From IMG/VR virus record IMGVR_UViG_3300004241_000002: a stretch of 64,000 nucleotides of DNA. The stretch is one strand, 5' to 3'. Below the pieces are notes generated by a model. The model had not been told where the DNA came from and did not search any database. It worked only from the letters and a program-made list of their open reading frames with translations. A program made the position numbers and the translations under genes. This document shows positions 1 to 59,660 of the stretch, piece by piece. Source of the DNA: a virus. Position 1 is the first letter of the stretch. Each line of letters starts with the position of its first letter.

Positions 1-1102
1 TGTAAAATCAGAGATATTTGACGAAGAAGAATATCCTAACTGGACTATGATACTATATGATACAAAAAGAAATCAAGTAATGATTAACAGTACTTTATTT
101 TCTTTATTATATGAAAATCTTGATATGAACTTCCAAAAGTATGGAATATTTTATCAGAGAGAATGTTCTATTCTTGCTGAATCAGAAGATTTCTTCTTAT
201 ATTATTTAGTATCGAGATCCTACTCAAGAATACCATTTACAATAAATGAATATGAAAAGGAACAATTGCTTCTCATATCATATAACAATTACAAAACAAT
301 TTGGAAAGAAACACTATCCTTAACACTACAAAACAAAATATTCTTTAAATTATTCTTTAATAAGATAATAGGGAGAATTATTATGTTAATAGTAGTGAAA
401 AGATTCTTAAAGCGATTTAAACTATTTAAAAAAATAGTTGTACTAGGATTAATTACTGATCCTATACTAGCGGAAGTATCAGAAAAACTTAGAAGTAAGA
501 AAGTATTTAATACATATGGCGAAACTAGTAGTTTAATGGCTACTGGTATGTCACAGAAACCAGGACATATATCTATAATACCTGGTCTTTCTACAGCTTC
601 TATCTCATTAAAGGAAAGCTCAAAGAATTTTAGGATTCTTTCTAAAGATAATGATGTAAATACATTTGATAGAGTATCAAACGTTATGTTATCTTTTCGA
701 ACAAATAACTTATTATTAAACGTAATAAGCGATTCGTTATTTATAATAAATGGTGATTATGCAAAATTCCTAGGACACGCTTTTACAAATGGAGTATGCC
801 CTATACATATTGAATCAATTTTTAACTCATTCCCATTTATCAAGGATTCTGCTTTAGTATTATGGAAAGGAAACTATCATCTTTTATTAGATGTAGATGA
901 GGCAATACTTGAAGCAAATAACATCAACTACGTGTTCTTTAATAAGATTATGAAAGGACAAGTAGATAAAATGAATGAACTTGTATTGCCAAAAGCGATA
1001 CAAATAAAAACTTTTGGACAAGTCCCATGTTCTGTGCCTAACTATAACAGACTGGGCCTATTAAATAAAGATTTTCTATATAATGTAGAATTCATTGTTT
1101 GA
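1..1102 (+). CDS. hypothetical protein, 5' end probably outside window
   Basis: The frame of the listed 47..1102 ORF stays open back to nt 2. Stop is TGA at 1100-1102, followed by TAG TAG. Faint, from-memory resemblance to the C-terminal half of adenylate-forming (ANL) enzymes: NTYGETSS (YGxTE-like), IINGDYAKF, IHIESIF..FPFIKDSALV. No clear terminal catalytic Lys. Confidence 0.5.
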   Translation, partial: VKSEIFDEEEYPNWTMILYDTKRNQVMINSTLFSLLYENLDMNFQKYGIFYQRECSILAESEDFFLYYLVSRSYSRIPFTINEYEKEQLLLISYNNYKTIWKETLSLTLQNKIFFKLFFNKIIGRIIMLIVVKRFLKRFKLFKKIVVLGLITDPILAEVSEKLRSKKVFNTYGETSSLMATGMSQKPGHISIIPGLSTASISLKESSKNFRILSKDNDVNTFDRVSNVMLSFRTNNLLLNVISDSLFIINGDYAKFLGHAFTNGVCPIHIESIFNSFPFIKDSALVLWKGNYHLLLDVDEAILEANNINYVFFNKIMKGQVDKMNELVLPKAIQIKTFGQVPCSVPNYNRLGLLNKDFLYNVEFIV

Positions 1103-2448
1103 TAGTAGAGACGTTAGTTGCCGTCAATAATTAGTATAATGAGTAGATCTACCGGAGATTGCTGATACATTAGAAAATAATACGGGTTACACACATTGAC
1201 GCACTGAACAGTACATTTAATAATCTATACTACTAATAATTTTATAGGTGTAAGGGACAGCAAATCTCTTAGATAATGTACAACATGCTGTGCTGATGTT
1301 AACATAATGTTAACTAAACGCAATAGACTTTGCCTATGTGTCTTCTAATTGCATAAATTATACTCGTGACGAACAGGGTGGAATTCCCAATGAAAAATAC
1401 ATTGTCTCTAAGTCACAGACTAGGTTGCTATGCTAGAAATGAGAGCAAAACCTATCAAAGGTAAAGGCATCGTGTTTGTATTACGAAAGTATATGCCAAA
1501 CTACACGTAAAAATAAGTTTTAGGTACGACTACCAGTAACCAAATCTGGGTTGAATAAAAAAGCTAGGATCTGACCCCTTCTTAACAAAGGAATAACTAG
1601 TGAGATGTCGAAAAATTATTGGAAAGTATTAAACTTATTGGTAAATTGGGTGCTATAATCAAATAGCTTCGAGGTTGAAATCCTCCACGCGTATCCAAGA
1701 GAGGCCGTTAACAGCCGTAGTGCAAAGGGGCCCAATCGCTTAAAAGTACAGTAGCTAGAAACTGTATTTGATAGTCACTAAGTTAATTAATATTGGAAAA
1801 TAATGCTTTATCGGGTTTAATGTTTTAGATTAAATATGTTAGACTGCACAGATAATATATTGGCGTAAAATAGGAATATATTACAGCAAGTGACATCGAA
1901 GAATATTAAACAAGCCGAACTGAGTCGGATAGTATACTCAGAAACGCAACTAATGATATATTTGTGAAACATTTTATATAAAGAAGTGCGAAACAAGTTC
2001 GGTAAATCATTTCTTACTGGAACTGACTAGTGTGAAAACTGTTAGCTCTATATCTACAACAGATGTAGTGAAAGTAGGGAGGTTTGAGGCCCGTCTAGTA
2101 GTAGCTGCTGATGTGAAAGTCAGATTACGCGTGTCGTTAAAATTATTTTTTGTATAAAGGGAGTAATAAATATGGAGGTGGAGCAAGGATCAATATAGAA
2201 ATATATTTGCCAGCTAAAATTATGCATGTTTATTGAAAAAACAAAACTCTACTGCTATCGTAAGCTAGTACATTGATACTTAATTACCATGTCAATAGCT
2301 GTAGAGTGAGCAAACAAAACCTTATGGTGAGTATATGCTCATCTAAAAGCAACAGAGAGAAAGGAAAAGTGTTTTACTTGTCTGACGATGAGATTGCATT
2401 TCTCGTTTGTTTATCACTCTACTTATTTTTTAATTAATAACCACTTAA
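1103..2448 (+). other. ORF-free, hairpin-rich region with G+C islands; candidate large structured ncRNA or regulatory/origin region
   Basis: No ORF of 60 aa or more on either strand across 1346 nt, while neighbouring genes are packed or overlapping. Local G+C islands (35/60 G+C at 1681-1740 by my count). T-arm-like GAGG-TTGAAAT-CCTC at 1671-1685. Four GTGAAA motifs at 1964-2118. Nested-helix element plus T-run at 2301-2431. Strand inferred only from the T-run and flanking gene orientation. Confidence 0.35.
2301..2431 (+). terminator. long closing helix (9 bp + 7 bp) enclosing two hairpins, followed by a T6 run; terminator-like end of the ORF-free region
   Basis: GTAGAGTGA (2301-2309) pairs with TCACTCTAC (2414-2422). 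AAACAAA (2312-2318) pairs with TTTGTTT (2406-2412). Inner hairpins at 2328-2341 and 2390-2404. T-run at 2426-2431. Confidence 0.4.
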
Positions 2449-2889
2449 ATGAAAACAAATTACTATTTTGAGTTACTAACAAACTGTAGTCCTATAGTAA
2501 AAGGTGGTGAATTAATTAAAGATTCGAATGTAGGAGGAATAAAGAATACATACAATGTTTATAAAGTTTATAGTATATTTACTGTAAGCTTATATAAGCG
2601 TCATTTGGGTAAAGTCATTCTACTAAGACCATATAAATCAATATGGAATAAAAGAATGTCAAGGTTACCAAAAATTTATTGGGGTAAGGATCCCATTTTT
2701 ATTAATATGTGGTTATTGTTAACAAAGGATTATGATAAACTAAATGTTTCATTTGGTTCAACGAGTGTATTGATGTATGAAAGCACCACCCAAACTAAAA
2801 CTATTAGTATATTAAATGTACAATTCGAATCCAAATTAATAAAGAAATTCCTAAAAACAAATCAATCCTTTAGTATAAATCAAAAATAA
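2449..2889 (+). CDS. hypothetical protein (146 aa)
   Basis: ORF only, with no recognisable motifs. Starts 17 nt after the T-run of the upstream element. Confidence 0.4.
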   Translation: MKTNYYFELLTNCSPIVKGGELIKDSNVGGIKNTYNVYKVYSIFTVSLYKRHLGKVILLRPYKSIWNKRMSRLPKIYWGKDPIFINMWLLLTKDYDKLNVSFGSTSVLMYESTTQTKTISILNVQFESKLIKKFLKTNQSFSINQK

Positions 2890-2897
2890 CTAAAATC

Positions 2898-3356
2898 ATG
2901 GCAAAGAAAAGTTTTATTTCAGCAGATGCAACAGAACAAGTTATCACAAATAACATCAAAGAACTCTTAAAAGAGGAAACAAGGAACAGAATTCCTTCAA
3001 TGTTTACTGAATCTTATATGCTTGCGGAAGCAGATGCAGAAGATGGCGTAGCTGAAGGTAAAGTCATCAATGACCTTGATGTAACAAGTTTTGCTACAAT
3101 CAAGGAGGTCTTCGTAACTTCTATTGTTTCTGTCGACAACGGAAAAGCAATAAGAGTTAACGGAGAAATCGAAATTCCACTGGAATCAGGGAGAAAAGTT
3201 TCACTCTTCGAAACTTTGTTCACAGACAAGAACGAAGCCATTGCAAGATGGGAAGATTATATGGAACAGAAACTCAAGGTTGCCCTTGACAAACAGAATG
3301 CTTACAACAATCTTGTTGGCTTCCTGAAAAATCAGATCTCAGAAAGAAACTTCTAG
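2898..3356 (+). CDS. hypothetical acidic protein (152 aa)
   Basis: ORF with visibly higher G+C than its neighbours and tight spacing to the flanking genes. The antisense ORF 3014..3241 is judged a shadow. Confidence 0.6.
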   Translation: MAKKSFISADATEQVITNNIKELLKEETRNRIPSMFTESYMLAEADAEDGVAEGKVINDLDVTSFATIKEVFVTSIVSVDNGKAIRVNGEIEIPLESGRKVSLFETLFTDKNEAIARWEDYMEQKLKVALDKQNAYNNLVGFLKNQISERNF

Positions 3357-3357
3357 T

Positions 3358-3930
3358 ATGAAAAAATTACTAGGTATTTTTCTGATAAGTATTTTGAGTT
3401 TGTTTTTAATACAAGCTCAAGATAATACATCTAAATCTTATGCTGTTTCAGCAGGTGACACTGTGACCGTAACAGTAAAGACTACAGATGTGAATCTTCC
3501 TATTAAGGATACCAAAATGATCTATGATCAAATTGATAGACTTAAGGAATCAAACAAACTAGAATATGATGCTATGATTAGTAAACTAAATTTAGTAAAC
3601 AGTAAAATTGATAATATTGTTTACAAAGAAAGTGATGCTAAAATAGAATATATAGCAGCAAATTTTGGTATGACAGAGAAAGATATAACTAATACAATTC
3701 GACGAAGTAGCGCATTTACAATAATTGCATGCATCATTCCTATAGTACTATTATTCTCTGTATGGTGGAAATTATATAAGTTCCGACAACTAGAAGCCAG
3801 TAATGCCTTAATATGGGTGATACTGATGCTAGTTGTTGCACTCGTTACTGGGTTTCTTATCAAATTTACACTTGAACATCTATTTAATCAAGACATGGCC
3901 GTCTTGACACATCTACAAAACTTATTGTGA
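3358..3930 (+). CDS. putative membrane protein (N-terminal signal/anchor plus two C-terminal TM segments)
   Basis: MKKLLGIFLISILSLFLIQA hydrophobic leader. C-terminal hydrophobic stretches FTIIACIIPIVLLFSVWW and LIWVILMLVVALVTGFLI. Confidence 0.6.
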   Translation: MKKLLGIFLISILSLFLIQAQDNTSKSYAVSAGDTVTVTVKTTDVNLPIKDTKMIYDQIDRLKESNKLEYDAMISKLNLVNSKIDNIVYKESDAKIEYIAANFGMTEKDITNTIRRSSAFTIIACIIPIVLLFSVWWKLYKFRQLEASNALIWVILMLVVALVTGFLIKFTLEHLFNQDMAVLTHLQNLL

Positions 3931-3937
3931 AAAAATC

Positions 3938-4504
3938 ATGTTAAGTTCAAATTTCGCTTTATCAAGACTTCTTAGAAAGAAGTTAAAAGAGGTGATACAA
4001 TATTCTGAAGACTTTTTAGGATACAAATATGTTAAGGTGAGGAGGACCGGCAAGGTCCTTCTTGCCAAAAACATATTCCAGTTTATATTTAAGCCAGTAA
4101 AGCTTAATTTAAACCAGGTATTATCTCATATAGATACACACATTGTTAATGATGTATCAATCCCTGAAAAGATTGATGTATTATATACAGCTATATTAGC
4201 GAAAAAATACAACTTAACCCAAACAAAGGAACCGTCTCTCACATTGAGAGCATTACTGCGTATGGGAGCCTTAACAGACTCTCGTTATGCTGAAGGATAT
4301 ATTAACTTAATCTATGGTTATGTAAAGGATAAATACAGTGCTAATCTATTAAGTATAATTGAAATATTAACCACGTCTAAAAACGTTGTTAGACCTTCTG
4401 CTGACAGGACTGATAAAGTTGTTATTAATGCTATACTGAGGTCTCTTAGCTTATTAAGAGCTCCTCCTAATAGAGTAACAATAGGGCTACTACGAGTAGC
4501 TTAA
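3938..4504 (+). CDS. hypothetical protein (188 aa)
   Basis: ORF only. Confidence 0.5.
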   Translation: MLSSNFALSRLLRKKLKEVIQYSEDFLGYKYVKVRRTGKVLLAKNIFQFIFKPVKLNLNQVLSHIDTHIVNDVSIPEKIDVLYTAILAKKYNLTQTKEPSLTLRALLRMGALTDSRYAEGYINLIYGYVKDKYSANLLSIIEILTTSKNVVRPSADRTDKVVINAILRSLSLLRAPPNRVTIGLLRVA

Positions 4505-4516
4505 AACAAATTAAAA

Positions 4517-4560
4517 AGATGGGTGGTAGTCTATAAGGGCTACCATCTATCTTATTTTTG
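4517..4560 (+). terminator. hairpin plus T-run after the 3938..4504 gene
   Basis: AGATGG...GGTAG / CTACC ATCT pairing (4517-4548), followed by CTTATTTTTG. Confidence 0.45.
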
Positions 4561-4705
4561 ATAACCTAATATACCTACTTTAACAAACACTTTCAGTAAC
4601 TTTACAAATCTTTTACCGTAAATAAAGAACCAATCTTAATCAAGCTTTTGGAAAAGTTAGTATATCAACTAAAGAGATATACAAATATGAACCAAATCTT
4701 TAATT

Positions 4706-5350
4706 ATGAAGAAGCTTTTAATAGCTTTTTCTGTGTTAATTCTAACAACTTTAAATAGTTATGCTCCTACTTATGATAAAGAGTATATAGAAAATACAGA
4801 AAAGTTAACAAAAGTGGTAAACATTAGTAAAGAGCTGGATATAAATGAGATAGGAATATCAAATATACCATTAAATCCTTTTATTGATTTAAACAATGAA
4901 CAGGAATTTAAACTTTCAAGTAAATATGGTTATAGAATGCATCCTATACTAAAAGCAGTTTTACTGCATAAAGGTATAGATGTTATTGTTGAAAAAAACG
5001 AACCTATTTTAGCATCTGGTTCAGGTCAAGTAATAAAAACTGGATACTCCAAATTCGGGTACGGTAATCACGTGATTATCAAACATAATGATGAATATAG
5101 TACATTATACGCCCATCTAAACGATATCAATGTAAAAGAAGGAGATTATGTACATTATGGAGATGTAGTCGGCTTAGGCGGACAAACAGGCCTCGTATGG
5201 GGTAAAAGCTGTCATCTTCATTTTGAATTAAGAAAGAACAATACTGCGATTGATCCTCTTAAATTCATAGGAGCAAAAACTGGTGAAGAATTTGCTTATA
5301 AAATGTATCAATTAAAGGAAACCAACGACTATTTATTTGGAGTAAGTTAA
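4706..5350 (+). CDS. secreted M23-family (LytM-like) metallopeptidase
   Basis: Signal-like N-terminus MKKLLIAFSVLILTTLNSYA. M23 motifs HKGIDV, GNHVIIKH..YAHL and HLHFEL. Confidence 0.8.
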   Translation: MKKLLIAFSVLILTTLNSYAPTYDKEYIENTEKLTKVVNISKELDINEIGISNIPLNPFIDLNNEQEFKLSSKYGYRMHPILKAVLLHKGIDVIVEKNEPILASGSGQVIKTGYSKFGYGNHVIIKHNDEYSTLYAHLNDINVKEGDYVHYGDVVGLGGQTGLVWGKSCHLHFELRKNNTAIDPLKFIGAKTGEEFAYKMYQLKETNDYLFGVS

Positions 5351-5390: not shown

Positions 5391-5945
5391 ATGAATTTCG
5401 CAGAAAAAACTTTTAAACTTGAAAAACTAATTGATGTAAAGTCTGGTATTGAAGAATTTATTAAACTAAAGATAGATGAAAAGTCTAAATTATTATACTC
5501 GAAAGAGTATTCAGTTGATAAAGACAAAGATATAGACGATACTATTGCCACGTTGGATGAACAACTTGTAGAAGTTAAGTTGGCTATCCAAATAGCAAAT
5601 ACTAATGAGAAACACGAAGACGGTAATACAAACAATCATTACATATATTTGTTATCCTCATTAAACAGAAGATTAGCAATGTTACGTGAATTAGAAAAAA
5701 GGGGAGAAAATCATCTCTTTTTATTTTCTAAAGAAACGACAAAAGGCCCTAATGCGGCCCATAACAAAAAATTACGTGAGCGTCTTACTACAAAGAAAGA
5801 AGCTGAAAAACGTATGAAAGAAATTGCTAATGAAATTGTAAAAATTGAAACTTCTATTTCAGAAATAAAACCAAAACTAACAGAATTTAACAAACGTGTC
5901 GAAACGAAGGTTAAAGTTTTTGAAGGACTTGAAAAATTCTTTTAA
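5391..5945 (+). CDS. hypothetical coiled-coil protein (184 aa)
   Basis: ORF rich in heptad-like K/E. The segment LAIQIANTN...LLSSLNRRLAMLRELEK faintly recalls the DIP1984/septicolysin-like family from memory; not verified. Confidence 0.5.
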   Translation: MNFAEKTFKLEKLIDVKSGIEEFIKLKIDEKSKLLYSKEYSVDKDKDIDDTIATLDEQLVEVKLAIQIANTNEKHEDGNTNNHYIYLLSSLNRRLAMLRELEKRGENHLFLFSKETTKGPNAAHNKKLRERLTTKKEAEKRMKEIANEIVKIETSISEIKPKLTEFNKRVETKVKVFEGLEKFF

Positions 5946-23563: not shown

Positions 23564-26500
23564 TTATCTTTTAAACCATGGTATTTGTGTATCAATGTTT
23601 CTAAGTCTATAGTATTGTCTAAGCACTGGTACCATATTAACCATATGTTTATACATTTTTAACTGACCTTTCCAAGGACCACTTTCGTATACTTCCATTG
23701 GATTAAGCGCCTGTCTAGCCAACTTACCAACGTTTTCTACCACTGATAAAGATGCTGCGGGAGATCTTAATATAGCCATAGCATCTGGTATACTTACATA
23801 GAACATCAGTTCTGCCTTTAGTCTAAGTAGTTGATACATTAGGAAGTTATCTGCAAAGCTTAATTCTTCTTCATCGTCGTCCATAAGTCTAACAAAGAGT
23901 AGTATACTGGCAATCATTACTATTTCTAATAAACCACGTACAATGTTAGCTCTTTCTTGATCACTTAACATTGCCCATCTTTGACCAACTGTATACTGTC
24001 TTAATAAAGCCAGTTCCTCTTCTGTTCGTTTCCACCATGTAGCTAACTGAAAAGCTGGTTTAATCATATGTTCATACATTGTAGGATATATTCCAACCTG
24101 ATATTCCATGGTACGTTCTTCATATCTTTTCTTACCCCAATGTCTACGTATACCAGGAGCCATAAACTTCCTAAACATATAAGCTAAAGATAGAAAAGCA
24201 TTCTGCTGCATCATGACAATAGCTAAATTTGAATAGTCACCATGTAATCTACTGGCAACTCCCTCTACTCTTTGCTTAAAGTTAATTTGATCTATTTTAT
24301 TCCACTGAGACCTATCTAAATCTACTTTACCTTCTTTATCAAATATTAATTTACCTTTATCGTTAAGTGTATAAAAATCCATTAATGAGCCAATTACTTT
24401 ACCATCCTTATCATAAGCTTTCTTATCATATAGCATACCTACAAGCAATTTAACCTTCATAAAATGTTCACCCATATTATTTAAAGAATGAACCATTTTA
24501 TCAGCTCTAAATCCTTGTGCCTTTGACATTTGACTAATACTCTTTGCAGAAGGCATTTCTACTATATCAAATGATTGTGCCAATAAGGTTAAGAAATTTT
24601 CAGGTACCCTTGCTCCAACATCTGATATCATACCAGGTAAGTTTGCTGCATAGTCCTTGTGTGCTTTAAGATATGACATCTTGGACATATATTGCCCAGC
24701 TACTGCTTCTATCCATTGATTTATTTCACCCAAAGATACGTTATTAATACCTTGTGTAATGTTTAAACCTAACAAGTTAGCAGCAGTATATTTCTTTAAA
24801 AACTGTATTAACTTGCCTACATCAATATTAGTACCTGGTATAACACCAGCATCTTTTTCATATTGACCAAATATAACAGCATTTATCCAGGATATAGTTT
24901 GGTTAGCTATATTACCACCAATAACAGTAGGTGTTCTTTCACTAGTTATACCAACTATCTTTTCAAATGTATTTTTAACAGTAGCACTAAAAGAGTCCCT
25001 CTTTATAATCTCACGCTGTTTTAATACATCTTTCATCATAGTTACTTCTGCCAATATAGCATGTTTTTTACTATAGTCCATAGCAGATGCATAATAACTA
25101 AAATATATACCAAAAAGATCAAATGATTGATTTTCATAATCTTCAACATAACTATCTCCTACTTTCTTAAGTACAGGTTTAATATAATGAATAGGTATCC
25201 AATATAGTGCCTCTCCTTTATCATCTACAATTTCTTGTGGCCTATGAGTGTCATCTACCTTAAAAGTAAATGTCCTACTTAAAGACTGAGATGTCATTGT
25301 ATATAAATTCTGACCACTAGATATTCGTTCGTTCTTTTGTTTTATAATACCTGGTAATCTAGCTCCTATAGCCATACCACCTGGAACAAGATTGTCTGCA
25401 TTACGCTGCATTTCAACAATAGCATTATATACCTTGGTTCTTATATCATTAGGATCCTTAAGTATCTCTTGTAATTTGTCCCACTGTGATGTATCCCACG
25501 CAGGACCAGCCTCCCTATAATCATCTATATGTTCATTGGTCCACTTCCTAATAGTATTTACAACTTCTTCTCGTAAGTAACCATCTTTAACTTCCTTGTC
25601 AAACTTAGGAAATAACTCCTTAATATGAAGCTTTTCTGTTATAAGGTTATATTCTTTATCTGTAATATGATTAGGGTCATCTTTATCTAATAATGTAAGT
25701 TCTTTTAAATAAGTATATATACCTTCTACAAACTTTAAGTTATTTAAAGGCATATTATCACTTAACCAGCCGTTTATAAAGCGTCTACGCTCCTTATCTT
25801 CTTCTTTTTTATCTTCATTTGTAATAGTAGAGGCCAATATAATAGCTTTCTTCTTTTCTTTAATTAATTCAGATGGGAACTTACTAATTATATAGTTAGT
25901 AGGATTACCTTTGCTATCTTTTTCTAACATAAAATCATACATACTCTGATAATTGCTAAATATAGCACCAGATTTATGTAAATGATTGTAGTATTCTTTA
26001 AGTATAGGCTCGTATTTAAGTCTTTCTTCTTCTACTAATATACGTCTTTCATCATCAGTAGCAGTTATAAACTTAACAAAAGCACCAACAGCAGCATCCC
26101 CAGTATCAAGTACATTATCTACCAACATCTCTAAGTAACCAATGTCTTTCATACCTTTCTTTAATTCGGCGGTAATGCCCTCTAATGAGTCTTTCTCAAT
26201 TGATTTCTGTATTGGACCAGTATTTATAACAGCATATACATATTCATCTTCTGACATAGCAGGGTTAAACAATTTAGTTGTTTCAATACCATGCTCATAA
26301 TTATATTTATTTAACCTATAATCACGTTTAGCGGTTTCTATATGTTGTACCTTAATTTTATTATAATATGGTACTAATGTAGTAGCTAAAAGTTTTATAG
26401 CTCTACTAATATACTGATCTTTAACATAATCTATATCTGATACAGCCTGCTTAAGCCTACTTCTATATTGCTTTCTTAAATCTGTTTCACCTTCTCTTTG

Positions 26501-29500
26501 AATATTAGGTATTATATTAGCATTATCTACAGCATTAACTAAATACTGTTCATAATGCCTTAATATTTCAAAAGAACCTATCATAGAATAGTACCTAATG
26601 AGTTTCCTTTTATCAGCTGCAACATCTGTAGACCAACTATTGATCATATTTGTTCTTGCTTCCGACAATATTCTAGCGGCATAATCTATAAATTCGTTCA
26701 TAGCCTCTACAGGCTCTTTGTGTTTAGCAATAATGTTATGCATAGCAGCAGCAACTTCTTCTGCCCTAAACTTATTACCAAACATTGATTCTAATTTTTT
26801 TCTTGTAGTTAGTTTTTCAACTACTTCTAGTAATATCTTTTGTATGTCTGTCTGATTTGTTTCAGCAAACATTGCTTGTCTAAAAGACTCTTCTTCATTA
26901 AGAGCTCTTTCTTCTATAGCGTCATCGCTTGTATCTATAGTAACTTCTTCCTCAAGATAACGCTCCCTAACCTTTTGAAACTCTTCTTTCCATAATTCAG
27001 ATATAAGTTTACTATACCATAATAATTCATGAATATAAGAATTCTGAAATTCCCTATCTAAATCATACTTACCGTCTGGTGTTTCTGCTATAGATATAAT
27101 ATATCTCCTATCCGCTAATACTCTGTGAGATGGTTGGCCAGGATTTATAACATTAGACATCATCATAGTATCTAAATGTAACCTTAATTGAGTCCTATCC
27201 CTTAAAGTTCCTGGTCTAAATGTTACATAATTTGGTTTAGTTTTATCAGGACCCTTTAAATTATTAAAGGTACCCATTTCCTTACCACCATCAAATAAAT
27301 TTATCATAGAATAAACAAGCATACCACTTGTCTTATCAGTATAGAATACAACAAAATCTACAACATCATATACTTTTCCATCATTGTCCCATAATACAGC
27401 ATTTGTAATAACAGCTGCATCTTCACCAAACATTGTTTTAAACTTACCAATTAGCTCTTGTTTAGATCTATCTGTAATATCATATCTATTATTAAATTCA
27501 CCAATTGCTTTTGCTATAGCATTACTACCATTATATAAATTATTTACTTTAAGGTTAGAATCAAAATTCTTTATAGTTTTATCTATATTAGATGATACAT
27601 CTCCTATATCAAGCGCACTAACTATTCTTTCAGCTTCTAATAACTCTTTAGAATTAATAACAGCGCCCCCTTCTTTAAGGTGTTTATCTAACAACTTTTT
27701 AGTTACTTCAGCTTGATCTTTAATTGTAGCCTTATATTTTGAATCAGGACCTACTAAATCAACTAAATATTTATTAAATGACTCATTAAGACTTGGGAAC
27801 GACTTCTTATGATATAATCTAGGAATAGTCCTACTTACATGTATAGTATTATACTTTGATAATAATTCTATTAATGATTTGAATGTCTGACCTTCTATTG
27901 TTTTTGGACTATAGCCAAAAAACTTTAATACAGCATTCCATATTCTTTCTAAAAAGTTAAACTCAGATGTGTTAAGTTCTTGTAATATTTGAGGATCAGT
28001 AATACCATCTGCCATAAACTCTTCAAGGCTACCATAACCAGGGTGTCCTGCCTTAGCTAGTTTACTCTTAGCCTTAGCTGCCTTGTAGATGTTGTTTAGC
28101 TCACGTTTAAGGGCATGTTGTTCAGCAGTGGTAGGATTTATTATAGCTTCCATAGTAATGCCGTGTATGGCCTCGTGTAGAAGCGTACCCATAAGGGAAT
28201 CAATAGTGGATGAACCAAATATACCTATATTATCTTTTATTATATAAATAGTAGTATTACCCTTCTTACTATCTGTAATAATAAATCCATCAGAATCTTT
28301 TACTTCTTTATACCTACTTGGGTATAATGTTGCTATCTCTAACCTGCTAGCTATCTTAAAGTCAATGTTATTAAATTCTTTATTGTTCTTTATAATATCA
28401 AATACTCTTTCGTGAGATATAGATATACCATATTGATCTTTTAAGTTATTAATAACATCTATAATATTATTGTTGTTTTGATTTTTATTTAAGAAGTTCA
28501 TAATCTCATTAGATACTGCTTCTGTATGAGCAGCAGACTCAGGAGCCATTTCATCCTTTAAGCCAGGATCAAGGTTCTCTGAGTATACATTATCTACAGT
28601 AACACTATGGGTAGGAGAAAAGTCTATTGTTAATTGTGCTGATGTATTAGGAGGGGTATTAGGCACAGGACCTTCTTCAAGATTCTGATTACCTTTAACA
28701 CCATGATAATGATCTAACGCAGACTGATGAATGCCCATCCTAAAACCTTTATACTTAACAGCATATTCGCCATTGGGCATAGGTTTGTCATGGTACTCAT
28801 TATATTGTTTTACTTCTAATAAACCAGGTATAATTCTATTAATAGCTATAGCAAACCCACGCATATGAGCGACATTACCAGCCAATCTCTCAGGATCGTC
28901 TTTACGTAATATCTCAACATGCCCGTTAAATATAGTTTTACCTAATGCATTATTATAACCTAATAACAGTTTAGCTACATCACGCCATGTAGTTTTGTTA
29001 ACTATCTCCCTAGCTATATAGTCAAATTTATTTGGTATAACTCGTATTTTACTTAATATAACATCTTTGTTTAAATTAAAAGAAAAATGTCTAAAACCCT
29101 TTATTTCTGCAAATTTATTTTTGCCAACTGAATTAAATGGTATATAATTAGCAAAATCTCTAATATCTTTTAGCCTACCCATCTTTAATTTTGCCAAAAA
29201 TATAGGTTGCCAGTCTTGAAAAGATTTTTCGTTAGTATCTAACTCTAAGGCTTTAACAAAAAATAAGTCAATGGCATAGCCATCTATATCTCCACTAATT
29301 GTTATTTCATTATTATTACCTTTAAAAGAATTGGTTATTTTAAAAGAAGGATATTTATCTTTTATAGATTTTAAAATAGGATGCTTTCTATAAGATTGAT
29401 CTAATGTTTTAGTAAGATTATCTAAAAGAAATCCTTTACCTGATTCAGATGCTCCTTCAAAATTTCTATCAAGATCAGCTAATAATTTATCAAAAAATTC

Positions 29501-30448
29501 ACCATGTTTGTCAGAAGTTAATGTAAAATCTAAATCATGTAAATCTTCACTAGCATCTCTATATAGTGTTCCCTGTCTTCTTAAACTGAGAGATCCTGTC
29601 AATAATAAACCAAGCTCTTGAAAGTTTTCTATTATCTCTTTTGCTTTAGCATCTTTGCTTATAGTATTATCATAATTTGTTAATTGTTGAGATTCTGATA
29701 ATGTTGTACCAAATTTATCAAAATTAAGATTTAAAACATCATTGGCTAAATCATCCAATAGATCTATAATTTCTTCATTAGATAATTTATTATCAAATAA
29801 GCTTTCAACAAAAGATTTTATTTTAAGTAATAAATACTTTAATTGCCTTTCCAGTTTACTACCCCCTTTTATTTGCCAATACTCAGCTTTTCTATTTTGA
29901 TAACTATCTTTTGGTAATTCAAAATTATTTTTTATAGCATCTGCTATAAAATCTATAACTATTAATTCTTTAATTTTACCTTCTGATAAATTAGGGCTAC
30001 GCTTTTTATAGTCGTTATGTATTTTTGAATAATTTGTAATATTTTCTATAGAGTGAAGTAGATCTGTTCTGATCTTATTTTTTTTTCCAAGAAAACTGTA
30101 CACAACGTATGCTGTTTCTTTTAAAAGACCTTCTTGTTTATAATTATTATTAACTAATATAGTTTTATATAATAAATCTGTTAAACTTTGAGGGTTATAT
30201 TCTGACGCATCTTTTAAATCATCTCTAAATTCTGTAGTAAAATTTAGGTTATTTAAAAATTGTAATAACTTACTATCTAAAGGAACGTCTTTATTTTCAG
30301 ATACAAATTGATCTAAACTAGGCCATTCATCAGTATTATTCTGCTCCATCCACACACCCATCTTTGCAGATAATATTGCAGGATGCAGACCAGATGCTTC
30401 CACTAATTCGTTAAAGTCAGGATGATTTATATTAATACATTTAGCCAT
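23564..30448 (-). CDS. giant virion-associated protein (about 2294 aa) with a zincin HExxH motif and an N-terminal nucleotidyltransferase-like signature
   Basis: Uninterrupted ORF. The likely start is ATG 30448 (MAKCININ), which overlaps the upstream stop as TAATG. HEAIH at 28163-28177. GS...DLD...DL pattern at 29267-29596. C-terminal hydrophobic segment LLEIVMIASILLFV. Confidence 0.85.
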   Translation of the reverse strand: MAKCININHPDFNELVEASGLHPAILSAKMGVWMEQNNTDEWPSLDQFVSENKDVPLDSKLLQFLNNLNFTTEFRDDLKDASEYNPQSLTDLLYKTILVNNNYKQEGLLKETAYVVYSFLGKKNKIRTDLLHSIENITNYSKIHNDYKKRSPNLSEGKIKELIVIDFIADAIKNNFELPKDSYQNRKAEYWQIKGGSKLERQLKYLLLKIKSFVESLFDNKLSNEEIIDLLDDLANDVLNLNFDKFGTTLSESQQLTNYDNTISKDAKAKEIIENFQELGLLLTGSLSLRRQGTLYRDASEDLHDLDFTLTSDKHGEFFDKLLADLDRNFEGASESGKGFLLDNLTKTLDQSYRKHPILKSIKDKYPSFKITNSFKGNNNEITISGDIDGYAIDLFFVKALELDTNEKSFQDWQPIFLAKLKMGRLKDIRDFANYIPFNSVGKNKFAEIKGFRHFSFNLNKDVILSKIRVIPNKFDYIAREIVNKTTWRDVAKLLLGYNNALGKTIFNGHVEILRKDDPERLAGNVAHMRGFAIAINRIIPGLLEVKQYNEYHDKPMPNGEYAVKYKGFRMGIHQSALDHYHGVKGNQNLEEGPVPNTPPNTSAQLTIDFSPTHSVTVDNVYSENLDPGLKDEMAPESAAHTEAVSNEIMNFLNKNQNNNNIIDVINNLKDQYGISISHERVFDIIKNNKEFNNIDFKIASRLEIATLYPSRYKEVKDSDGFIITDSKKGNTTIYIIKDNIGIFGSSTIDSLMGTLLHEAIHGITMEAIINPTTAEQHALKRELNNIYKAAKAKSKLAKAGHPGYGSLEEFMADGITDPQILQELNTSEFNFLERIWNAVLKFFGYSPKTIEGQTFKSLIELLSKYNTIHVSRTIPRLYHKKSFPSLNESFNKYLVDLVGPDSKYKATIKDQAEVTKKLLDKHLKEGGAVINSKELLEAERIVSALDIGDVSSNIDKTIKNFDSNLKVNNLYNGSNAIAKAIGEFNNRYDITDRSKQELIGKFKTMFGEDAAVITNAVLWDNDGKVYDVVDFVVFYTDKTSGMLVYSMINLFDGGKEMGTFNNLKGPDKTKPNYVTFRPGTLRDRTQLRLHLDTMMMSNVINPGQPSHRVLADRRYIISIAETPDGKYDLDREFQNSYIHELLWYSKLISELWKEEFQKVRERYLEEEVTIDTSDDAIEERALNEEESFRQAMFAETNQTDIQKILLEVVEKLTTRKKLESMFGNKFRAEEVAAAMHNIIAKHKEPVEAMNEFIDYAARILSEARTNMINSWSTDVAADKRKLIRYYSMIGSFEILRHYEQYLVNAVDNANIIPNIQREGETDLRKQYRSRLKQAVSDIDYVKDQYISRAIKLLATTLVPYYNKIKVQHIETAKRDYRLNKYNYEHGIETTKLFNPAMSEDEYVYAVINTGPIQKSIEKDSLEGITAELKKGMKDIGYLEMLVDNVLDTGDAAVGAFVKFITATDDERRILVEEERLKYEPILKEYYNHLHKSGAIFSNYQSMYDFMLEKDSKGNPTNYIISKFPSELIKEKKKAIILASTITNEDKKEEDKERRRFINGWLSDNMPLNNLKFVEGIYTYLKELTLLDKDDPNHITDKEYNLITEKLHIKELFPKFDKEVKDGYLREEVVNTIRKWTNEHIDDYREAGPAWDTSQWDKLQEILKDPNDIRTKVYNAIVEMQRNADNLVPGGMAIGARLPGIIKQKNERISSGQNLYTMTSQSLSRTFTFKVDDTHRPQEIVDDKGEALYWIPIHYIKPVLKKVGDSYVEDYENQSFDLFGIYFSYYASAMDYSKKHAILAEVTMMKDVLKQREIIKRDSFSATVKNTFEKIVGITSERTPTVIGGNIANQTISWINAVIFGQYEKDAGVIPGTNIDVGKLIQFLKKYTAANLLGLNITQGINNVSLGEINQWIEAVAGQYMSKMSYLKAHKDYAANLPGMISDVGARVPENFLTLLAQSFDIVEMPSAKSISQMSKAQGFRADKMVHSLNNMGEHFMKVKLLVGMLYDKKAYDKDGKVIGSLMDFYTLNDKGKLIFDKEGKVDLDRSQWNKIDQINFKQRVEGVASRLHGDYSNLAIVMMQQNAFLSLAYMFRKFMAPGIRRHWGKKRYEERTMEYQVGIYPTMYEHMIKPAFQLATWWKRTEEELALLRQYTVGQRWAMLSDQERANIVRGLLEIVMIASILLFVRLMDDDEEELSFADNFLMYQLLRLKAELMFYVSIPDAMAILRSPAASLSVVENVGKLARQALNPMEVYESGPWKGQLKMYKHMVNMVPVLRQYYRLRNIDTQIPWFKR

Positions 30449-33400
30449 TATAAACAATTTTTATGATTAGTAATTTCTTCAGGTGACATAGCAATCATAT
30501 CTTTTAATGTCAAGGGTACATAGTTAGGTTTATCTTTATACTTATTATTAACTAAATCCTTTAATTGATTTAAGGACATATCTTCTGGTTGTTCAACCGT
30601 CCTTGTACTAATATTAGTATCCTCTGTTACATCGGTAGACATCTCTGATATTAACCGATCCCTAACTGAAATATTACCTGCAAAAGCATTATCTAATACA
30701 ACACTATAGTCGTCTATAAGGATAACATCTTTGGCATTTTCAAACTCCATAGACGGATGGTTAAAGTATAACATTTCATCTCCATCGGGAATATAGTTGT
30801 TTATAGTTTTAACAGCTTCTTTACCATTCTTATCTAAGTATTCTAACTTTAATGTTTCTTGATTCTCTTCAATAGCACTCTGGTCAAACCAATACTCCTT
30901 ATATGTTATACCACCTTTATCGTATGATTTCCTTGGTATAGTTTTATATATAGGATGTATTTCTGTAATGTATTTAGTTTTAGTTACATTTCTACCATTA
31001 GAATCTACTGCATCTACAGCTTCCTCTTTTGATATTTTGTAGTAACCTATATACTTAAATAAATGAGGTTTAATATTGAAAGCTGAAGAATTATCATAAT
31101 ACATTATATACTTAGTAAATATAGGATCGCCTGCCATATTATTACCCAAGAAATGATTAGAGTCTTTGGTTATACGAGGTGCTTTCTTTGACTTAACATC
31201 ATATGTGACCATTTCAACATGATTTAATTCTATCATAGTCAAAGAACCATCTTCAGCTGTCAACAAAGGAACACTATTATCTTCTTTCAGTTTACCGGCT
31301 GGCACTTCTTTAAATAACAAAGGAATATTATCATCAAATACGGTTGGTATTAAATCCTTGTTTTGAGCATTGTTAATAAACACTTCGTCTATAGTAGACA
31401 TTATTTCAGTTGATAATATAGGATCGCTATATAATTGACGTTTGCCTTTTATAAACTCGTTTAAACTCACAGGTTCTTCACCACGCCTAACCTGAAAGTC
31501 CTTGATTAAATCAGGTGGTATGATATTAAAAAATGAATGTAACCTATTCCTAAACCCTGAATTATAGAAAGCAAATACAAACAACCTCTTTGCAAAAGAT
31601 ACTATTCTCTTACCTTCTTCTGTAGATTGATCTGCATTTAACATATCAAGCCAGTCATACATATAATCATCATTAGATAATTTATCTGCAAATGACTTCT
31701 TAGCAGTACCAATAAAATATTTAATGGGTAATTTAGCTTCTGTTGTTATGGGTAATTTACTAAAGGACCTCATCACAGCATTGTTTTTTAGATATGCTGC
31801 TTCAGGTACCTTATTCATTTGAATCTTACCAAGATACTCCATAACACTATTCCATAATACAACAAGATTACCAGAACCATCTTTATTGGTATCTGTAGTA
31901 ATTATATCGTCGTGAAAGAACTCACCTACAATAGTAGCATATAATTCATCGGCTATAGAATTTATAAATCTTTTGTCTAATGTATCTGAATTATTAGATA
32001 AATCAAGTATAGTACCTAATGCCCTCATAAATACAGGAGAAGCATATATAGTTAATTGTGGTAATACATCTAATAAGAACCCTACAGAATTTCTATAATA
32101 TGGCCCCAATAAGCTTTCGCCATTCTTAATATCTTTTATAGGTAATAGTTTATCTGCATTCTTAAACAAAGGATAATTACCTTCATTCTTCTTTGTAAAG
32201 TCTTCGAGTCTTTTATTATAGTGAATAACTTCTACAGCAGTCTTACCATACTTCTTAGTATCTATCTGAGATAACTGAACAAGATTATTAAGATCTTTTG
32301 ATATATAATCAAAATGCTTATATATAGAAAGAATCCTTAACTGATGTAATATAAATGCGTCTTTCTCTTTGTCAGATTCAAATGATTCTATAGTTTTGTT
32401 ATAGTAATCAAGTTTTTCATTACCCGCAATTGATATGGTTTCTTCTACAGATTCATTATTTAAAAATTCAGATCCCTTAATATTTTCATATTCTTTCTTA
32501 CCATCTTCTGATAAAGCAGCTTCCCATTGTTTCTTTGTTTCATTGAAAGCATGTGTCTCATTGTAGTATAACCTCATCCTATGTTTCCTACCAGAGTTTA
32601 TAGACGATCTGGCAAATTCTTTAAGTATAGGTTGTGATAAGAATTTAAATGTTTCAATACCCATGCCACCCCTTAATAATAAGGATGTAACATTATAGGT
32701 TACTTCATTGACATTTAATTTCATAATATAGTTATCCTTGGCTAAGTCAACGTGAGCATCTATCATAGCAGATAACCAAGATAATATACTTAATCTATCC
32801 TTGCCGTAAGTATCATTTAAACTTATACCACCTTTGTCGCCTTCTATAAGTAAACCTAGACCATTACCAGTATGTTGTAACCTTGCAATCTGACCTAAGA
32901 TATGATGTACATTGTTTAATGCAAACGGAGCTATACCTTTCTGTCCACCATTATACTGAAACTTTAATTTGTTTTGATGTGTAGCAGAATATACATATAA
33001 ATCATTAGAACTAAACTCTTCGTTTATAGTGCTTGCTAACTTCTTAAGCTGACCAGTAAATCCACCTAAAGGTAACTGAGTTTGTATAAGGTGTTCTTTA
33101 CTACTATATATAGATAAGTAGGCCGTAAATAGTTGATTCTTTATAGCACCCACAGTATTATATTCATAAGGATCTTTGTTCTTATTATCTTCTAAAAACT
33201 TTTCCCTTATCTCTTTTAAATTCCAATCCTTTACAGTATCTTTAATATGCATCAACACACCAATTGTCTCTAATGATAGAGAAGACGAGTCTGTTTCAAC
33301 ATTCTTCATTAAGTAATCTAAGTCAGTGCCTATTATATTTAATAAATCTTCATATAAGTTATCACCAAGAGATTGAATTATAGATTTAAGAGTATCTACT

Positions 33401-59163: not shown

Positions 59164-59371
59164 TTGCTGCAGTATTTGTATTGCGAATTATATCTTTACC
59201 AAAGTAAAATGCAAATACTCCAGCTATTATAGCTTGATACGTGCCAGGTAATTCATCAAAGTTATTGGTAACTAAATAACCCAATGCTGCTGTCATAAAA
59301 CAAATTACAGCGCCAGCGGTCATTAACTTACGCCAAGATAAATTATTTCCGTAACCCTTTAATATTTTCAT
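59144..59371 (-). CDS. two-TM small membrane protein (holin-like)
   Basis: LMTAGAVICFMTAALGYLV and AIIAGVFAFYFG, with a charged C-terminus. Confidence 0.5.
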   Translation of the reverse strand: MKILKGYGNNLSWRKLMTAGAVICFMTAALGYLVTNNFDELPGTYQAIIAGVFAFYFGKDIIRNTNTAANEKDSD

Positions 59372-59375
59372 GTCT

Positions 59376-59657: not shown

Positions 59658-59660
59658 GTT

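Follow-up and report, generated by a model that had tools for sequence, protein, structure and literature searches.

The window analysed here, the whole 64,000-nt stretch of one strand of the virus record IMGVR_UViG_3300004241_000002, encodes a tail fibre, a DNA polymerase, RNR, a primase and a helicase and includes ORFs of 2297 and 3984 aa. The DNA polymerase matches crAss-like phages best, at 32% identity. By far the largest uncovered stretch of the window, at 1103-2448, precedes the replication genes, which encode RNR, an exonuclease, the DNA polymerase, the helicase and the primase; when stretches are ranked by stop-to-stop frames of at least 80 codons across the whole window, the next measures 188 nt. 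Within these 1346 nt the longest ORF, both strands considered, encodes 59 aa under the standard code, in agreement with the earlier note, which had described the region as free of ORFs of 60 aa or more, and reassignment of TAG, TGA or TAA opens no gene-sized frame. The G+C content is 34% in the region and 32% in the window; the local counts given previously (35 of 60 nt at 1681-1740, 16 of 60 at 59401-59460) are exact. The locus is arranged as follows.

2-1102, + strand: upstream neighbour with a predicted ANL-type adenylate-forming enzyme fold, represented here by its C-terminal 366 aa and measuring 480-506 aa in relatives.
1106-2431, + strand: proposed RNA of ~1326 nt, beginning with the 5' strand of helix P1 and ending with the U-tract; a conserved collinear block in all homologues.
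2449-2889, + strand: downstream neighbour of 146 aa, with 13 homologue clusters, starting 17 nt past the U-tract.

About 12 distinct sequences from sludge, tailings and other metagenomes contain all or part of the ORF-free block, always between the same two genes. The block occupies an identical position in every relative found. Two diverged loci, L106 and L108, constitute subfamily B, which is very distant from subfamily A and retains collinear blocks by nhmmer and motif order; L004, with a block of 1.8 kb, probably represents a third subfamily. Whole hairpins are gained and lost from lineage to lineage. The locus is internal, not a genome end, in contigs of ~103 kb. Intact ORFs in relatives would point to degraded coding DNA; the blocks of the relatives, at 1.3-1.47 kb, are all ORF-free, and the region remains so in genomes whose flanking proteins are down to 40-60% identical. 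Variability by codon position reveals no codon periodicity in the region (0.37/0.39/0.43), against 0.52/0.38/0.70, 0.41/0.31/0.60 and 0.52/0.42/0.77 in three flanking ORFs, and 40% of its columns vary, compared with 44-57% in the flanking ORFs. This pattern shows the sole big gap of this phage genome to be under apparent purifying selection at least as strong as that on the flanking genes.

In GenBank phages, neither the region nor window positions 1-5000 has a match at the DNA level. In IMG/VR, a 26-mer, an invariant 18-mer and two motif patterns recovered only two known contigs and 28 chance matches in coding DNA, and neither the upstream protein nor an alignment of the distant ANL-fold group yielded a match there. 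An nhmmer profile of the family, run against 108 loci, gave matches confined to this clade, and the covariance model R2 found nothing significant among 35 other RNR-linked phage loci (L004 scored 20 bits, E 0.5).

Comparative analysis of the alignment yields a consensus fold of 218 base pairs with 96.2% of cells paired. Seventy of the pairs are changed on both sides, compared with 38.7±3.7 in shuffles (0 of 500 shuffles reach 70) and with 7-13 in a control with slid partners; the fold was derived from the same alignment that was used for counting, a circularity partly offset by the slid-partner control and by the covariance model R1. This model, built from seven subfamily-A sequences only, finds subfamily B at full length in the expected place, with E-values of 2.9e-6 for L106 and 5.6e-6 for L108. 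Comparison of subfamilies A and B shows both-side changes in 15 of the 23 pairs of Domain I. The presence of 189 G·U cells against 17 A·C cells identifies the + strand as the folded one; the alignment fold scores -129.5 there, compared with -92.3 on the - strand. Only modest thermodynamic z-scores (-2.8 to +1.5) are obtained for single domains, and in four of the six the single-sequence folding energy does not stand out (z -1.0 to +1.5). Full-length coverage comes from only about five deep lineages, so single short helices, and anything that rests on 4 bp, are uncertain. The region displays the generic features of a structured non-coding RNA, namely compensatory changes above controls, strand asymmetry and no coding signal. 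Conservation and covariation among relatives, the evidence that the earlier note had called for, are both present, the covariation being strong in the whole fold and in two separate domains. The elements of the 5' domain and the core are listed below.

1106-1112, + strand: 5' strand of P1 (UAGAGAC), pairing with 1404-1410.
1404-1410, + strand: 3' strand of P1 (GUCUCUA), followed after 1-3 nt, in both subfamilies A and B, by the 3' strand of helix 1363-1370/1412-1418.
1121-1185, + strand: helix 1121-1124/1182-1185, three of four pairs changed on both sides, 100% of cells paired.
1212-1280, + strand: helix 1212-1217/1275-1280, UACAUU/AAUGUA versus CACAUC/GAUGUG, four of six pairs covarying; it contains, on the + strand, helix 1223-1229/1243-1249 and hairpin 1252-1257/1265-1270 with the loop CAGCAAA.
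1288-1326, + strand: helix 1288-1293/1320-1326 with inner hairpin 1298-1304/1308-1314, holding the invariant block CAUGCUGUGCUGAUGU.
1363-1418, + strand: helix 1363-1370/1412-1418, with both-side changes in five of seven pairs when subfamilies A and B are compared.
1376-1388, + strand: first T-loop hairpin, GGG-UGGAAUU-CCC, within the preceding helix; found in A, B and L004.
1430-1507, + strand: helices 1430-1433/1467-1470, 1450-1453/1459-1462 and 1471-1475/1503-1507, with three of four, four of four and two of five pairs changed on both sides.
1527-1601, + strand: hairpin 1527-1536/1546-1553, next the conserved GGUUGA, and after it helix 1563-1567/1597-1601, which contains the inner helix 1577-1580/1588-1591 (+ strand), all from the comparative fold.
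1652-1685, + strand: hairpin 1652-1656/1663-1667 with a loop of varying size, followed by the second T-loop hairpin.
1671-1685, + strand: second T-loop hairpin, GAGG-UUGAAAU-CCUC, with a covarying stem.
1703-1716, + strand: optional hairpin, present in the window, L100, L108 and L106, absent from L088 and L093.
1719-1728, + strand: conserved block AGUGCAAAGG, collinear in A and B.

The 5' boundary of the proposed RNA is set by P1, and the 3' boundary by the closing helix and U-tract described below. P1 covaries completely between the subfamilies: UAGAGAC/GUCUCUA in the window corresponds to GGAGAC/GUCUCU in most relatives and GGAGAC/GUCUCC in L099, and, at the homologous place in subfamily B, to GAAGUG/CACUUU in L108 and UGUAGUG/CACUACA in L106. 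In most lineages P1 touches the upstream stop codon; in L098 the element begins ~180 nt past it. Stem replacement is seen in hairpin 1252-1257/1265-1270, which by eye in the alignment reads AAGGGA/UCUCUU, AGAUAG/CUAUCU, AUAAG/CUUAU, AAGAGU/ACUCUU and AACAA/UUGUU in different lineages, and in helix 1363-1370/1412-1418, with the variants GUGAC/GUCAC, GUAGC/GCUAC, GCAAC/GUUGC, ACAAC/GUUGU and GUGGC/GCCAC. The helices of 1430-1507 flank the conserved segments CUAGNAAUGAGAG and AUCAA; an inserted GAAA-capped hairpin at about 1478-1495 occurs in the window only. The core of hairpin 1527-1536/1546-1553 reads, by eye, CCAG/CUGG in A, CUAC/GUAG in L106 and CUAG/CUAG in L004. The stem of the second T-loop hairpin appears as GAGG/CCUC, UAGG/CCUA, GGGG/CCCC and GUGG/CCAC. 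Neither T-loop hairpin belongs to a tRNA or tmRNA: ARAGORN finds none in the window, and both hairpins stand alone. The 3' half is composed of the following elements.

1815-1911, + strand: long irregular hairpin domain, with outer helices 1815-1824/1902-1911, 1828-1830/1895-1897 and 1838-1841/1891-1894 and, also on the + strand, inner helices 1845-1847/1886-1888 and 1851-1864/1873-1884.
1835-1853, + strand: invariant block UAUGUUAGACUGCACAGAU, inside this domain.
1915-1941, + strand: candidate for a pseudoknot or an alternative pairing, with stems 1915-1918/1925-1928 and 1920-1925/1936-1941 that overlap at 1925.
1996-2070, + strand: hairpins 1996-2005/2014-2024, 2025-2031/2038-2043 (loop GUGAAA) and 2046-2054/2062-2070, with 6, 0 and 7 pairs changed on both sides.
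2091-2108, + strand: block CCGUCUAGUAGUAGCUGC, invariant in subfamily A and running into hairpin 2108-2112/2119-2123.
2091-2123, + strand: that block together with hairpin 2108-2112/2119-2123 (loop GUGAAA), four of five pairs changed on both sides.
2187-2287, + strand: hairpins 2187-2197/2202-2211 and 2228-2231/2239-2242 and helix 2260-2263/2284-2287, with 5, 2 and 2 pairs changed on both sides.
2301-2422, + strand: 3' domain with closing helix 2301-2318/2406-2422 (16 bp), covarying in A and B; within it, on the + strand, hairpin 2326-2331/2338-2343, the invariant segment UAAAAGCAACAGAG (2344-2357) and the stacked helices 2357-2361/2400-2404, 2369-2371/2397-2399 and 2377-2382/2387-2392.
2423-2431, + strand: U-tract UUAUUUUUU, directly 3' of the closing helix; the T-run is kept in A and B.

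The irregular domain at 1815-1911 has 97-100% of cells paired and five pairs changed on both sides, with a z-score of -2.8 on the + strand and -0.7 on the - strand. Among the hairpins of 1996-2070, one stem is replaced as CUAUAUCU/AGAUGUAG versus UUAUGCC/GGCAUAA versus CUCAUGUC/GACAUGAG. The hairpin at 2108-2112/2119-2123 takes the forms CUGA/UCAG, CCAG/CUGG, CCAA/UUGG, CUGG/CCAG, CGAG/CUUG and CAAG/CUUG, and is retained together with AGUAGCUGC in subfamily B. In the 3' domain, 95% of cells are paired, and 24 of 36 pairs show both-side changes where shuffles give 10.4±2.3. Its end resembles an atypical intrinsic terminator, in that a stable helix is followed directly by a U-run; the closing helix encloses an 87-nt 'loop', and for this reason a simple terminator scan misses it.

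All concrete statements of the earlier note that were checked hold. The hairpins it drew at 1296-1313 and 1852-1882, and the nested helix with U-tract at the 3' end, are recovered in the comparative fold, and its tRNA-like T-arm at 1670-1686 is a genuine T-loop hairpin with a covarying stem. The four GTGAAA motifs lie where it placed them, at 1964, 2032, 2068 and 2113; conservation is limited to the copies at 2032 and 2113, each of which forms a hairpin loop. The pseudoknot it proposed at 1914-1945 is still a candidate: stem 1915-1918/1925-1928 covaries (CCGA/UCGG versus CCAG/UUGG), and stem 1920-1925/1936-1941, being invariant, is uninformative.

The upstream protein has no Pfam or PHROG match, no homologue in GenBank phages and just 23 representatives among 1.84 billion proteins. 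In its AF2 model (pLDDT 68.8, pTM 0.70) it has the fold of ANL adenylate-forming enzymes, with Foldseek matches in the PDB to DltA, McbA and MenE (E ~1e-11, TM 0.5-0.6, 9-13% identity); by eye, its sequence is without the usual P-loop motif. The 146-aa protein has no family match and a poor structure model (pLDDT 56), and adjoins the ORF-free block at every locus, L004 included. No promoter was found upstream of the region. Relatives carry genes for tRNA-Leu, tRNA-Gln and tRNA-Lys 5-6 kb upstream on the same strand. A search for antisense targets elsewhere in the window gave a best match of 15 nt (E 0.07).

Taken together, conservation, covariation and the + strand fold support the main reading of the earlier note, in which the region specifies a large structured RNA outside the known classes. 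We put at roughly 0.8 the probability that positions 1106-2431 specify a functional structured RNA on the + strand, the strand of the flanking genes. The product would be a non-coding RNA of ~1.3 kb read from the + strand, folding into a 5' domain of ~300 nt closed by P1, a core that contains both T-loop hairpins along with long invariant joining segments, a series of covarying hairpins, of which two have GUGAAA loops, and a 3' domain with a 16-bp closing helix followed by the U-tract. It would be made in infection, as part of or next to a rightward operon leading into the replication genes, and the terminator-like helix would set its 3' end. The folded RNA itself would be the product, acting as the scaffold or catalytic core of a ribonucleoprotein whose partners would probably be the ANL-fold protein upstream and/or the 146-aa protein downstream. 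Synteny inside one phage clade links the RNA with both conserved neighbours, and it probably works with them. We lean slightly towards action as a free RNA or ribonucleoprotein, not purely in cis. Transcription, the precise ends, action in trans and the protein partners are inferred.

Since the next gene begins 17 nt past the U-tract, the downstream genes would need read-through or an internal promoter, an arrangement that a cis-acting part of the mRNA fits equally well. The region might serve the downstream genes as a giant leader or attenuator, or the ANL-fold gene as a protective 3' UTR, and so control read-through at the terminal helix and U-tract. There is no promoter room before the next ORF and no promoter signal upstream of P1, which in most lineages abuts the preceding stop codon. 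Furthermore, GUAGAGU (2301-2307) can pair in subfamily A with ACUCUAC at either 2246-2252 or 2416-2422, and these two possible partners imply a choice resembling that between terminator and anti-terminator. The alternative pairing, however, was not found by eye in L106 and L108, and in subfamily A it has no both-side change (of 11 pairs, 8 never vary and 2 vary on a single side); the terminal helix, in contrast, covaries. In L098 the element follows the upstream gene after ~180 nt, behind its own hairpin and T-run, which suggests a separate unit. With its 1.3 kb, many conserved domains and invariant joining segments, the region also has no counterpart that we know of among leaders or riboswitches near this size. 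We consider a purely cis-acting role unlikely.

The remaining explanations place the conserved element outside RNA function, or in a different kind of RNA. As the only large non-coding stretch of the window, upstream of the replication genes, the region could function as DNA, serving as a replication origin, a packaging site or a single-strand initiation signal whose hairpins form in DNA, and single-stranded DNA also allows G·T pairs. Yet direct-repeat families in the region do not exceed chance-level two-copy matches, TRF reports a 19-nt trace only, iterons and tandem repeats are absent, cumulative GC skew has no turn, and no A+T-rich unwinding block is present in a region slightly richer in G+C than its surroundings. 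We know of no DNA element with such a strand-specific covarying fold, here 70 both-side-changed pairs along 1.3 kb, T-loops and GNRA-type loops included, and the internal position of the locus in ~103-kb contigs also speaks against this role. A role as DNA, including the replication origin raised in the earlier note, is very improbable. An early-promoter array was dropped, as sigma-70-like sites number 7 against 8.9 expected. Introns are common in crAss-like phages, and an ORF-less group I or group II intron was considered together with the template or array RNA of a reverse transcriptase. Intron models give no match even when E-values as high as 10 are admitted. On either side lie distinct conserved genes; in every lineage a stop codon closes the upstream ORF, which in L098 is ~180 nt away from the element. 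A manual check for group II domain V at 2097-2136, the hairpin after AGUAGCUGC, found that the lower stem does not form. UG27 systems do occur in some crAss-like phages (PMC9226505). Their reverse-transcriptase domain (Pfam RVT_1) was absent from the four upstream genes of L088 and from five products encoded 3' of the region (four from the five nearest genes and that of 5391-5945, the M23 peptidase gene being compared with PHROGs only), and also from ten further + strand products of the window; the scan covered part of the window's ORFs, and gave no reverse transcriptase among 14 + strand products (Pfam), the L088 counterparts or the further products compared with PHROGs. A UG27 array was also rejected on the absence of ~150-nt repeat units and of the unit motif AUCN7UANAG, which has 19 matches in the window and none inside 1103-2448; any such mobile or retro-element RNA is highly improbable. 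Decayed or recoded protein-coding sequence has next to no probability: some phages, in a set that includes crAss-like families, reassign stop codons (PMC9226505), and broken frames look ORF-free in an A+T-rich window, but no reassignment opens a frame, codon periodicity is lacking, the region varies less than the neighbouring genes, and it is ORF-free in all relatives although the flanking proteins are only 40-60% identical.

No Rfam 15 family, GOLLD, ROOL, OLE, HEARO and raiA included, matches the 64-kb window at the gathering score. At E up to 10, positions 900-2700 and five homologue loci give scattered matches of 15-28 bits, none common to the homologues. This covariance-model search, recommended in the earlier note, is in line with its statement that membership of a known class could not be asserted. 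We rate the region as a putative new class of large structured phage RNA, present in a small group of crAss-like phages. Large ornate bacterial and phage RNAs without known function are rare, and the discovery of each class so far (OLE, GOLLD, ROOL, raiA) has led to new biochemistry or structural biology; the present RNA would extend the list to crAss-like phages. A bolder proposal, which we regard as unlikely, is that it founds a class of giant (1.3-1.8 kb) phage RNAs, a ribozyme or ribonucleoprotein core with an ANL-fold partner, possibly concerned with RNA acylation or adenylation or forming a GOLLD/ROOL-like cage. To our knowledge, no larger non-ribosomal structured RNA has been described from a phage.

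GOLLD RNAs (~800 nt) often reside in phages or prophages, have many hairpins and are made in lytic growth; ROOL RNAs (~580 nt) are often phage-associated, and tRNA genes lie immediately adjacent to both. The present region shares with GOLLD a very large, multi-domain, covariation-supported non-coding architecture, and with ROOL the character of a large ornate RNA, function being established for neither of them. The phage location is common to all three. At ~1.3 kb the region is about twice the size of these RNAs (more than twice that of ROOL), lacks a model match and a tRNA neighbourhood, the window containing no tRNA, and belongs to a crAss-like phage lineage; the comparison with GOLLD and ROOL made in the earlier note therefore stands as an analogy, not as membership. 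GOLLD forms homo-oligomers (PMC12286853), ROOL forms RNA nanocages (PMC12286853, PMC12515178), and RNA-only cages are formed by some large ornate RNAs (PMC12286853). Group II introns resemble the region in size class, multi-domain fold and GNRA-type loops and differ in having exons, where the region is flanked by separate conserved genes.

UG27 systems occur in Bacteroidota phages, crAss-like ones among them, and include a long structured intergenic region (PMC9226505), which is an array of ~150-nt ncRNA units (bioRxiv 10.64898/2026.09.22.753630). Such arrays belong to phages of Bacteroidota and Bacillota. The likeness extends to phage host range and to flanking proteins without known domains; the present region, in contrast, is one non-repetitive 1.3-kb fold without a reverse transcriptase. 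OLE offers a further parallel, as a large RNA with long invariant unpaired segments. The partner proteins of OLE are encoded next to the OLE RNA, and the region likewise keeps two fixed protein-coding neighbours. OLE RNA is ~600 nt long, occurs in Bacillota and has dedicated partner proteins (PMC9723947, PMC12054373). The region differs in being phage-encoded, in giving no model match, and in having neighbours unrelated to the OLE-associated proteins, one with an ANL fold and the other without an assigned fold; these two fixed neighbours provide a direct experimental handle on the RNA.

The ORF-free region at 1103-2448 lies between two + strand ORFs, of which the first ends at 1102 and the second starts at 2449. 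It is predicted to form a real, conserved, strand-specific and multi-domain RNA fold of ~1.3 kb whose structural ends are defined and for which no relatives are known. A large structured RNA of no known class had been proposed here in the earlier note, and the proposal is supported by conservation in relatives, by covariation, by a fold on the + strand and by the absence of Rfam matches. The longest ORF on either strand has 59 aa, confirming that the region is ORF-free, and stop counts in each frame with TAG, TGA or TAA reassigned reveal no gene-sized frame across it. When stop-to-stop frames of at least 80 codons are counted, the only long part of the 64-kb window that they leave uncovered is this one; the runner-up measures 188 nt. 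The second-largest gap between ATG-started ORFs, a very A+T-rich 497 nt at 59164-59660 in the - strand block, contains the low-G+C segment with which the region had been compared. Both G+C counts (35/60 and 16/60) are exact, as are the GTGAAA positions 1964, 2032, 2068 and 2113.

Decayed or recoded coding sequence, the former an alternative in the earlier note, is ruled out by missing codon periodicity together with variability below that of ORFs. When the window is aligned with L088 and L093, both of them diverged relatives, the fractions of variable columns at the three codon positions follow the expected pattern in three flanking ORFs (0.52/0.38/0.70, 0.41/0.31/0.60 and 0.52/0.42/0.77), against 0.37/0.39/0.43 in the region, and periodicity is absent from every sub-window of the region. 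Overall, 40% of the columns vary in the region versus 44-57% in the ORFs. The pattern indicates purifying selection acting on the nucleotide sequence of the region itself.

The source virus is treated as a distant crAss-like phage because its DNA polymerase finds its best GenBank matches in crAss-like genomes labelled 'uncultured phage cr…', with an identity of ~32%; the region has no DNA match among GenBank phages. The polymerase is encoded in the + strand block downstream of the region, together with an M23 peptidase, a class II-type ribonucleotide reductase, an exonuclease, a DnaB-type helicase, a Toprim primase and a PD-(D/E)XK nuclease. The - strand block carries tail-fibre genes and, at 23564-42402, a pair of giant ORFs lying side by side (2297 and 3984 aa), similar in size to the very large virion proteins known from crAss-like phages. 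The 2297-aa product has no match in PHROGs.

A search with the reductase gene led to two IMG/VR contigs, L010 and L003, to which the whole stretch aligns at 69-71% identity, a level close to that of the coding DNA around it, and in which the stretch is likewise ORF-free. Flanking-protein searches, then look-ups of contigs and a single metagenome scan, added full or nearly full-length loci (L082, L088, L093, L094, L096, L100, L104), loci partial at the 5' or 3' side (L083, L084, L086, L087, L091, L095, L097, L098, L099, L101-L103) and two strongly diverged full-length loci, L108, ORF-free over 1466 nt, and L106, over about 1300 nt, which form subfamily B; the window and most relatives form subfamily A. 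In every one of these loci, and likewise in L137 (see below), the genes on either side of the block encode 480-506 aa and 146-164 aa. A further contig, L004, whose reductase is only 61% identical, carries a 563-aa ORF weakly matching the upstream family profile (E 9.6e-5), then 1813 nt without ORFs (3402-5214) and, beyond these, a downstream-protein homologue. Several family motifs are visible in this block, including AAAAGGUGAAAAUCCUUGGG, a hairpin followed by GGUUGAGUAAAAG, and the T-loop GUGG-UAAGAAC-CCAC, and the covariance model R2 gives a weak match of only 20 bits; L004 is a probable, not proven, third subfamily. The family is rare: IMG/VR holds only L010 and L003, and other reductase-linked phage loci contain nothing similar to the block. 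It occurs in a rare clade of crAss-like phages known from anaerobic engineered habitats and from sediment-type ones.

A scan of genome collections found the window's own type in L137 (DHFP01000006.1), an 8.4-kb contig assigned to the MAG 'Clostridiales bacterium UBA4821'; it is probably a phage contig swept into that bin and unreliable as host evidence. Many short contigs stop inside the RNA region. L092 (~4367 onward) matches the RNA through CCAUGCU and then continues into unrelated sequence with a - strand gene, reflecting either an assembly chimera or a rearrangement. Relatives carry tRNA-Leu(UAA), tRNA-Gln(UUG), tRNA-Lys(UUU) and a sigma-70-family gene on the same strand, 5-6 kb upstream of the RNA (L088 1031-1116, 2153-2226, 1-200; L093 2000-2244, 747-1334; L137 164-934); in the window's genome such genes would lie just beyond the window edge.

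The RNAalifold consensus for 14 aligned sequences comprises 218 pairs in 40 helices, with standard pairs in 96.2% of cells. Both sides change in 70 pairs, compared with 38.7±3.7 in 500 column shuffles (0/500 reach 70), and sliding the 3' partners by 1-3 columns leaves only 7-13 such pairs. The folded strand is the + strand, co-oriented with the flanking genes, because G·U or U·G cells far outnumber A·C or C·A cells within the fold (189 vs 17) and the reverse-complement alignment folds worse (-92.3 vs -129.5). Indels between lineages correspond to whole hairpins.

Features of the proposed RNA (1106-2431, + strand)
1106-1112/1404-1410, +: 5' boundary helix P1; strands vary by lineage, complementarity kept
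1376-1388 and 1671-1685: T-loop hairpins of the core
~1478-1495: GAAA-capped hairpin, in the window's type only
1703-1716: optional hairpin
1996-2024, 2046-2070, 2108-2123 and 2187-2211: strongly covarying hairpins
2032-2037 and 2113-2118: GUGAAA loops capping two hairpins
2301-2318/2406-2422: 16-bp helix closing the junction of the 3' domain, whose arms are a hairpin and a three-helix stack
Insertion of ~50 nt: in L094
Insertion of ~150 nt: in subfamily B

P1 occurs as UAGAGAC/GUCUCUA, GGAGAC/GUCUCU, GGAGAC/GUCUCC, GAAGUG/CACUUU and UGUAGUG/CACUACA. In L098 the conserved element begins ~180 nt past the upstream stop codon, so the boundary is set by the element and not by the stop codon. The L098 spacer (3066-3245) contains the hairpin CCUAUAUA…UAUAUAGG, a T-rich run and a TATAAT-like box 3 nt before GGAGAC, features that hint at a separate transcription unit. 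The long invariant core segments UAUGUUAGACUGCACAGAU, CCGUCUAGUAGUAGCUGC and UAAAAGCAACAGAG are wholly or mostly unpaired in the consensus fold, and ARAGORN finds no tRNA. The pseudoknot noted earlier at 1914-1945 is a possible candidate. At the 3' end, UUAUUUUUU directly follows the 16-bp closing helix, and together they look like an intrinsic terminator.

The fold extends to subfamily B. With subfamily-A helices imposed on a 12-sequence alignment of domain I (1355-1515) including L108 and L106, 95.3% of cells pair and 15 of the 23 pairs change on both sides, versus 7.9±1.6 when shuffled and 1-4 when slid. A covariance model of the 3' domain (R1), given a hand-written structure and trained on seven subfamily-A sequences, recovers L106 (E 2.9e-6) and L108 (E 5.6e-6) full-length at the expected site just before the downstream gene; 95.1% of cells pair and 24/36 pairs change on both sides, a count flattered by the model-fitted alignment. 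Only ~5 deep lineages cover the full length. Long stretches stay unpaired in the consensus fold, from which long-range and tertiary pairs are surely missing. Single-domain folding energies stand out only for the 3' domain (z -2.7) and 1812-1914 (z -2.8) and are otherwise unremarkable.

Neither neighbouring protein matches a Pfam or PHROG family. The AlphaFold2 model of the upstream protein (window 2-1102; full length in L088, 6001-7500, P0007), built with ten homologues (pLDDT 68.8, pTM 0.70), resembles the fold of ANL adenylate-forming enzymes, Foldseek returning DltA, McbA, MenE and acyl-CoA synthetases (E ~1e-11, TM 0.5-0.6, 9-13% identity). Judged by eye, a shorter segment (ILYDTKRNQV in the window) stands in place of its glycine-rich P-loop motif, making catalysis doubtful. 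A profile search of 1.84 billion representatives yielded only 23 relatives; two weak hits (E ~1e-4) lie within 2203- and 3287-aa proteins of unchecked identity. The structure model of the downstream 146-aa protein is too poor for use. Because both genes adjoin the RNA in all subfamilies, a role in a ribonucleoprotein is favoured, this synteny within one clade not being independent evidence.

An origin or packaging site, the former also suggested earlier, is disfavoured: the region has no iterons, skew turn or A+T-rich block, the locus is internal in contigs of ~103 kb, and 70 both-side-changing pairs in a strand-specific fold are not what a DNA element shows. Nor is the promoter array of the earlier note borne out by sigma-70-like sites, which are not enriched (7 found vs 8.9 expected), and an antisense regulator finds no meaningful complementarity to the region in the rest of the window. 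The one serious rival is a cis-acting leader or attenuator. Only 17 nt separate the U-tract from the next gene start, no promoter was found before P1, and two copies of ACUCUAC, at 2246-2252 and 2416-2422, are alternative potential partners of GUAGAGU (2301-2307) in subfamily A, a possible terminator/anti-terminator choice. The alternative pairing, however, shows zero both-side changes in subfamily A, whereas the terminal helix covaries, and it was not found by eye in subfamily B. A free RNA and a cis-acting leader are not exclusive readings, as the RNA can terminate within, or be cut from, an operon transcript.

No Rfam 15 family reaches its gathering score anywhere in the window, and permissive filters (E up to 10) applied to the region and five homologue loci return only unrelated low-scoring matches that differ between loci. 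Detectable membership of GOLLD, ROOL, OLE, HEARO, raiA, RNase P, rRNAs, tmRNA and group I/II introns is thus excluded. Our literature search turned up no description of an RNA of this kind from Crassvirales. UG27 reverse-transcriptase systems, which occur in phages of Bacteroidota and Bacillota, have a long intergenic region whose units, ncRNAs of ~150 nt arranged as an array, serve as templates for short cDNAs (PMC9226505; bioRxiv 10.64898/2026.09.22.753630). An array of this type is rejected, as no reverse transcriptase occurs among the scanned gene products of the window or beside the block in L088; unlike UG27, the region contains neither repeated units nor the UG27 unit motif. While a member of none of their families, it is akin in kind to the large ornate RNAs.
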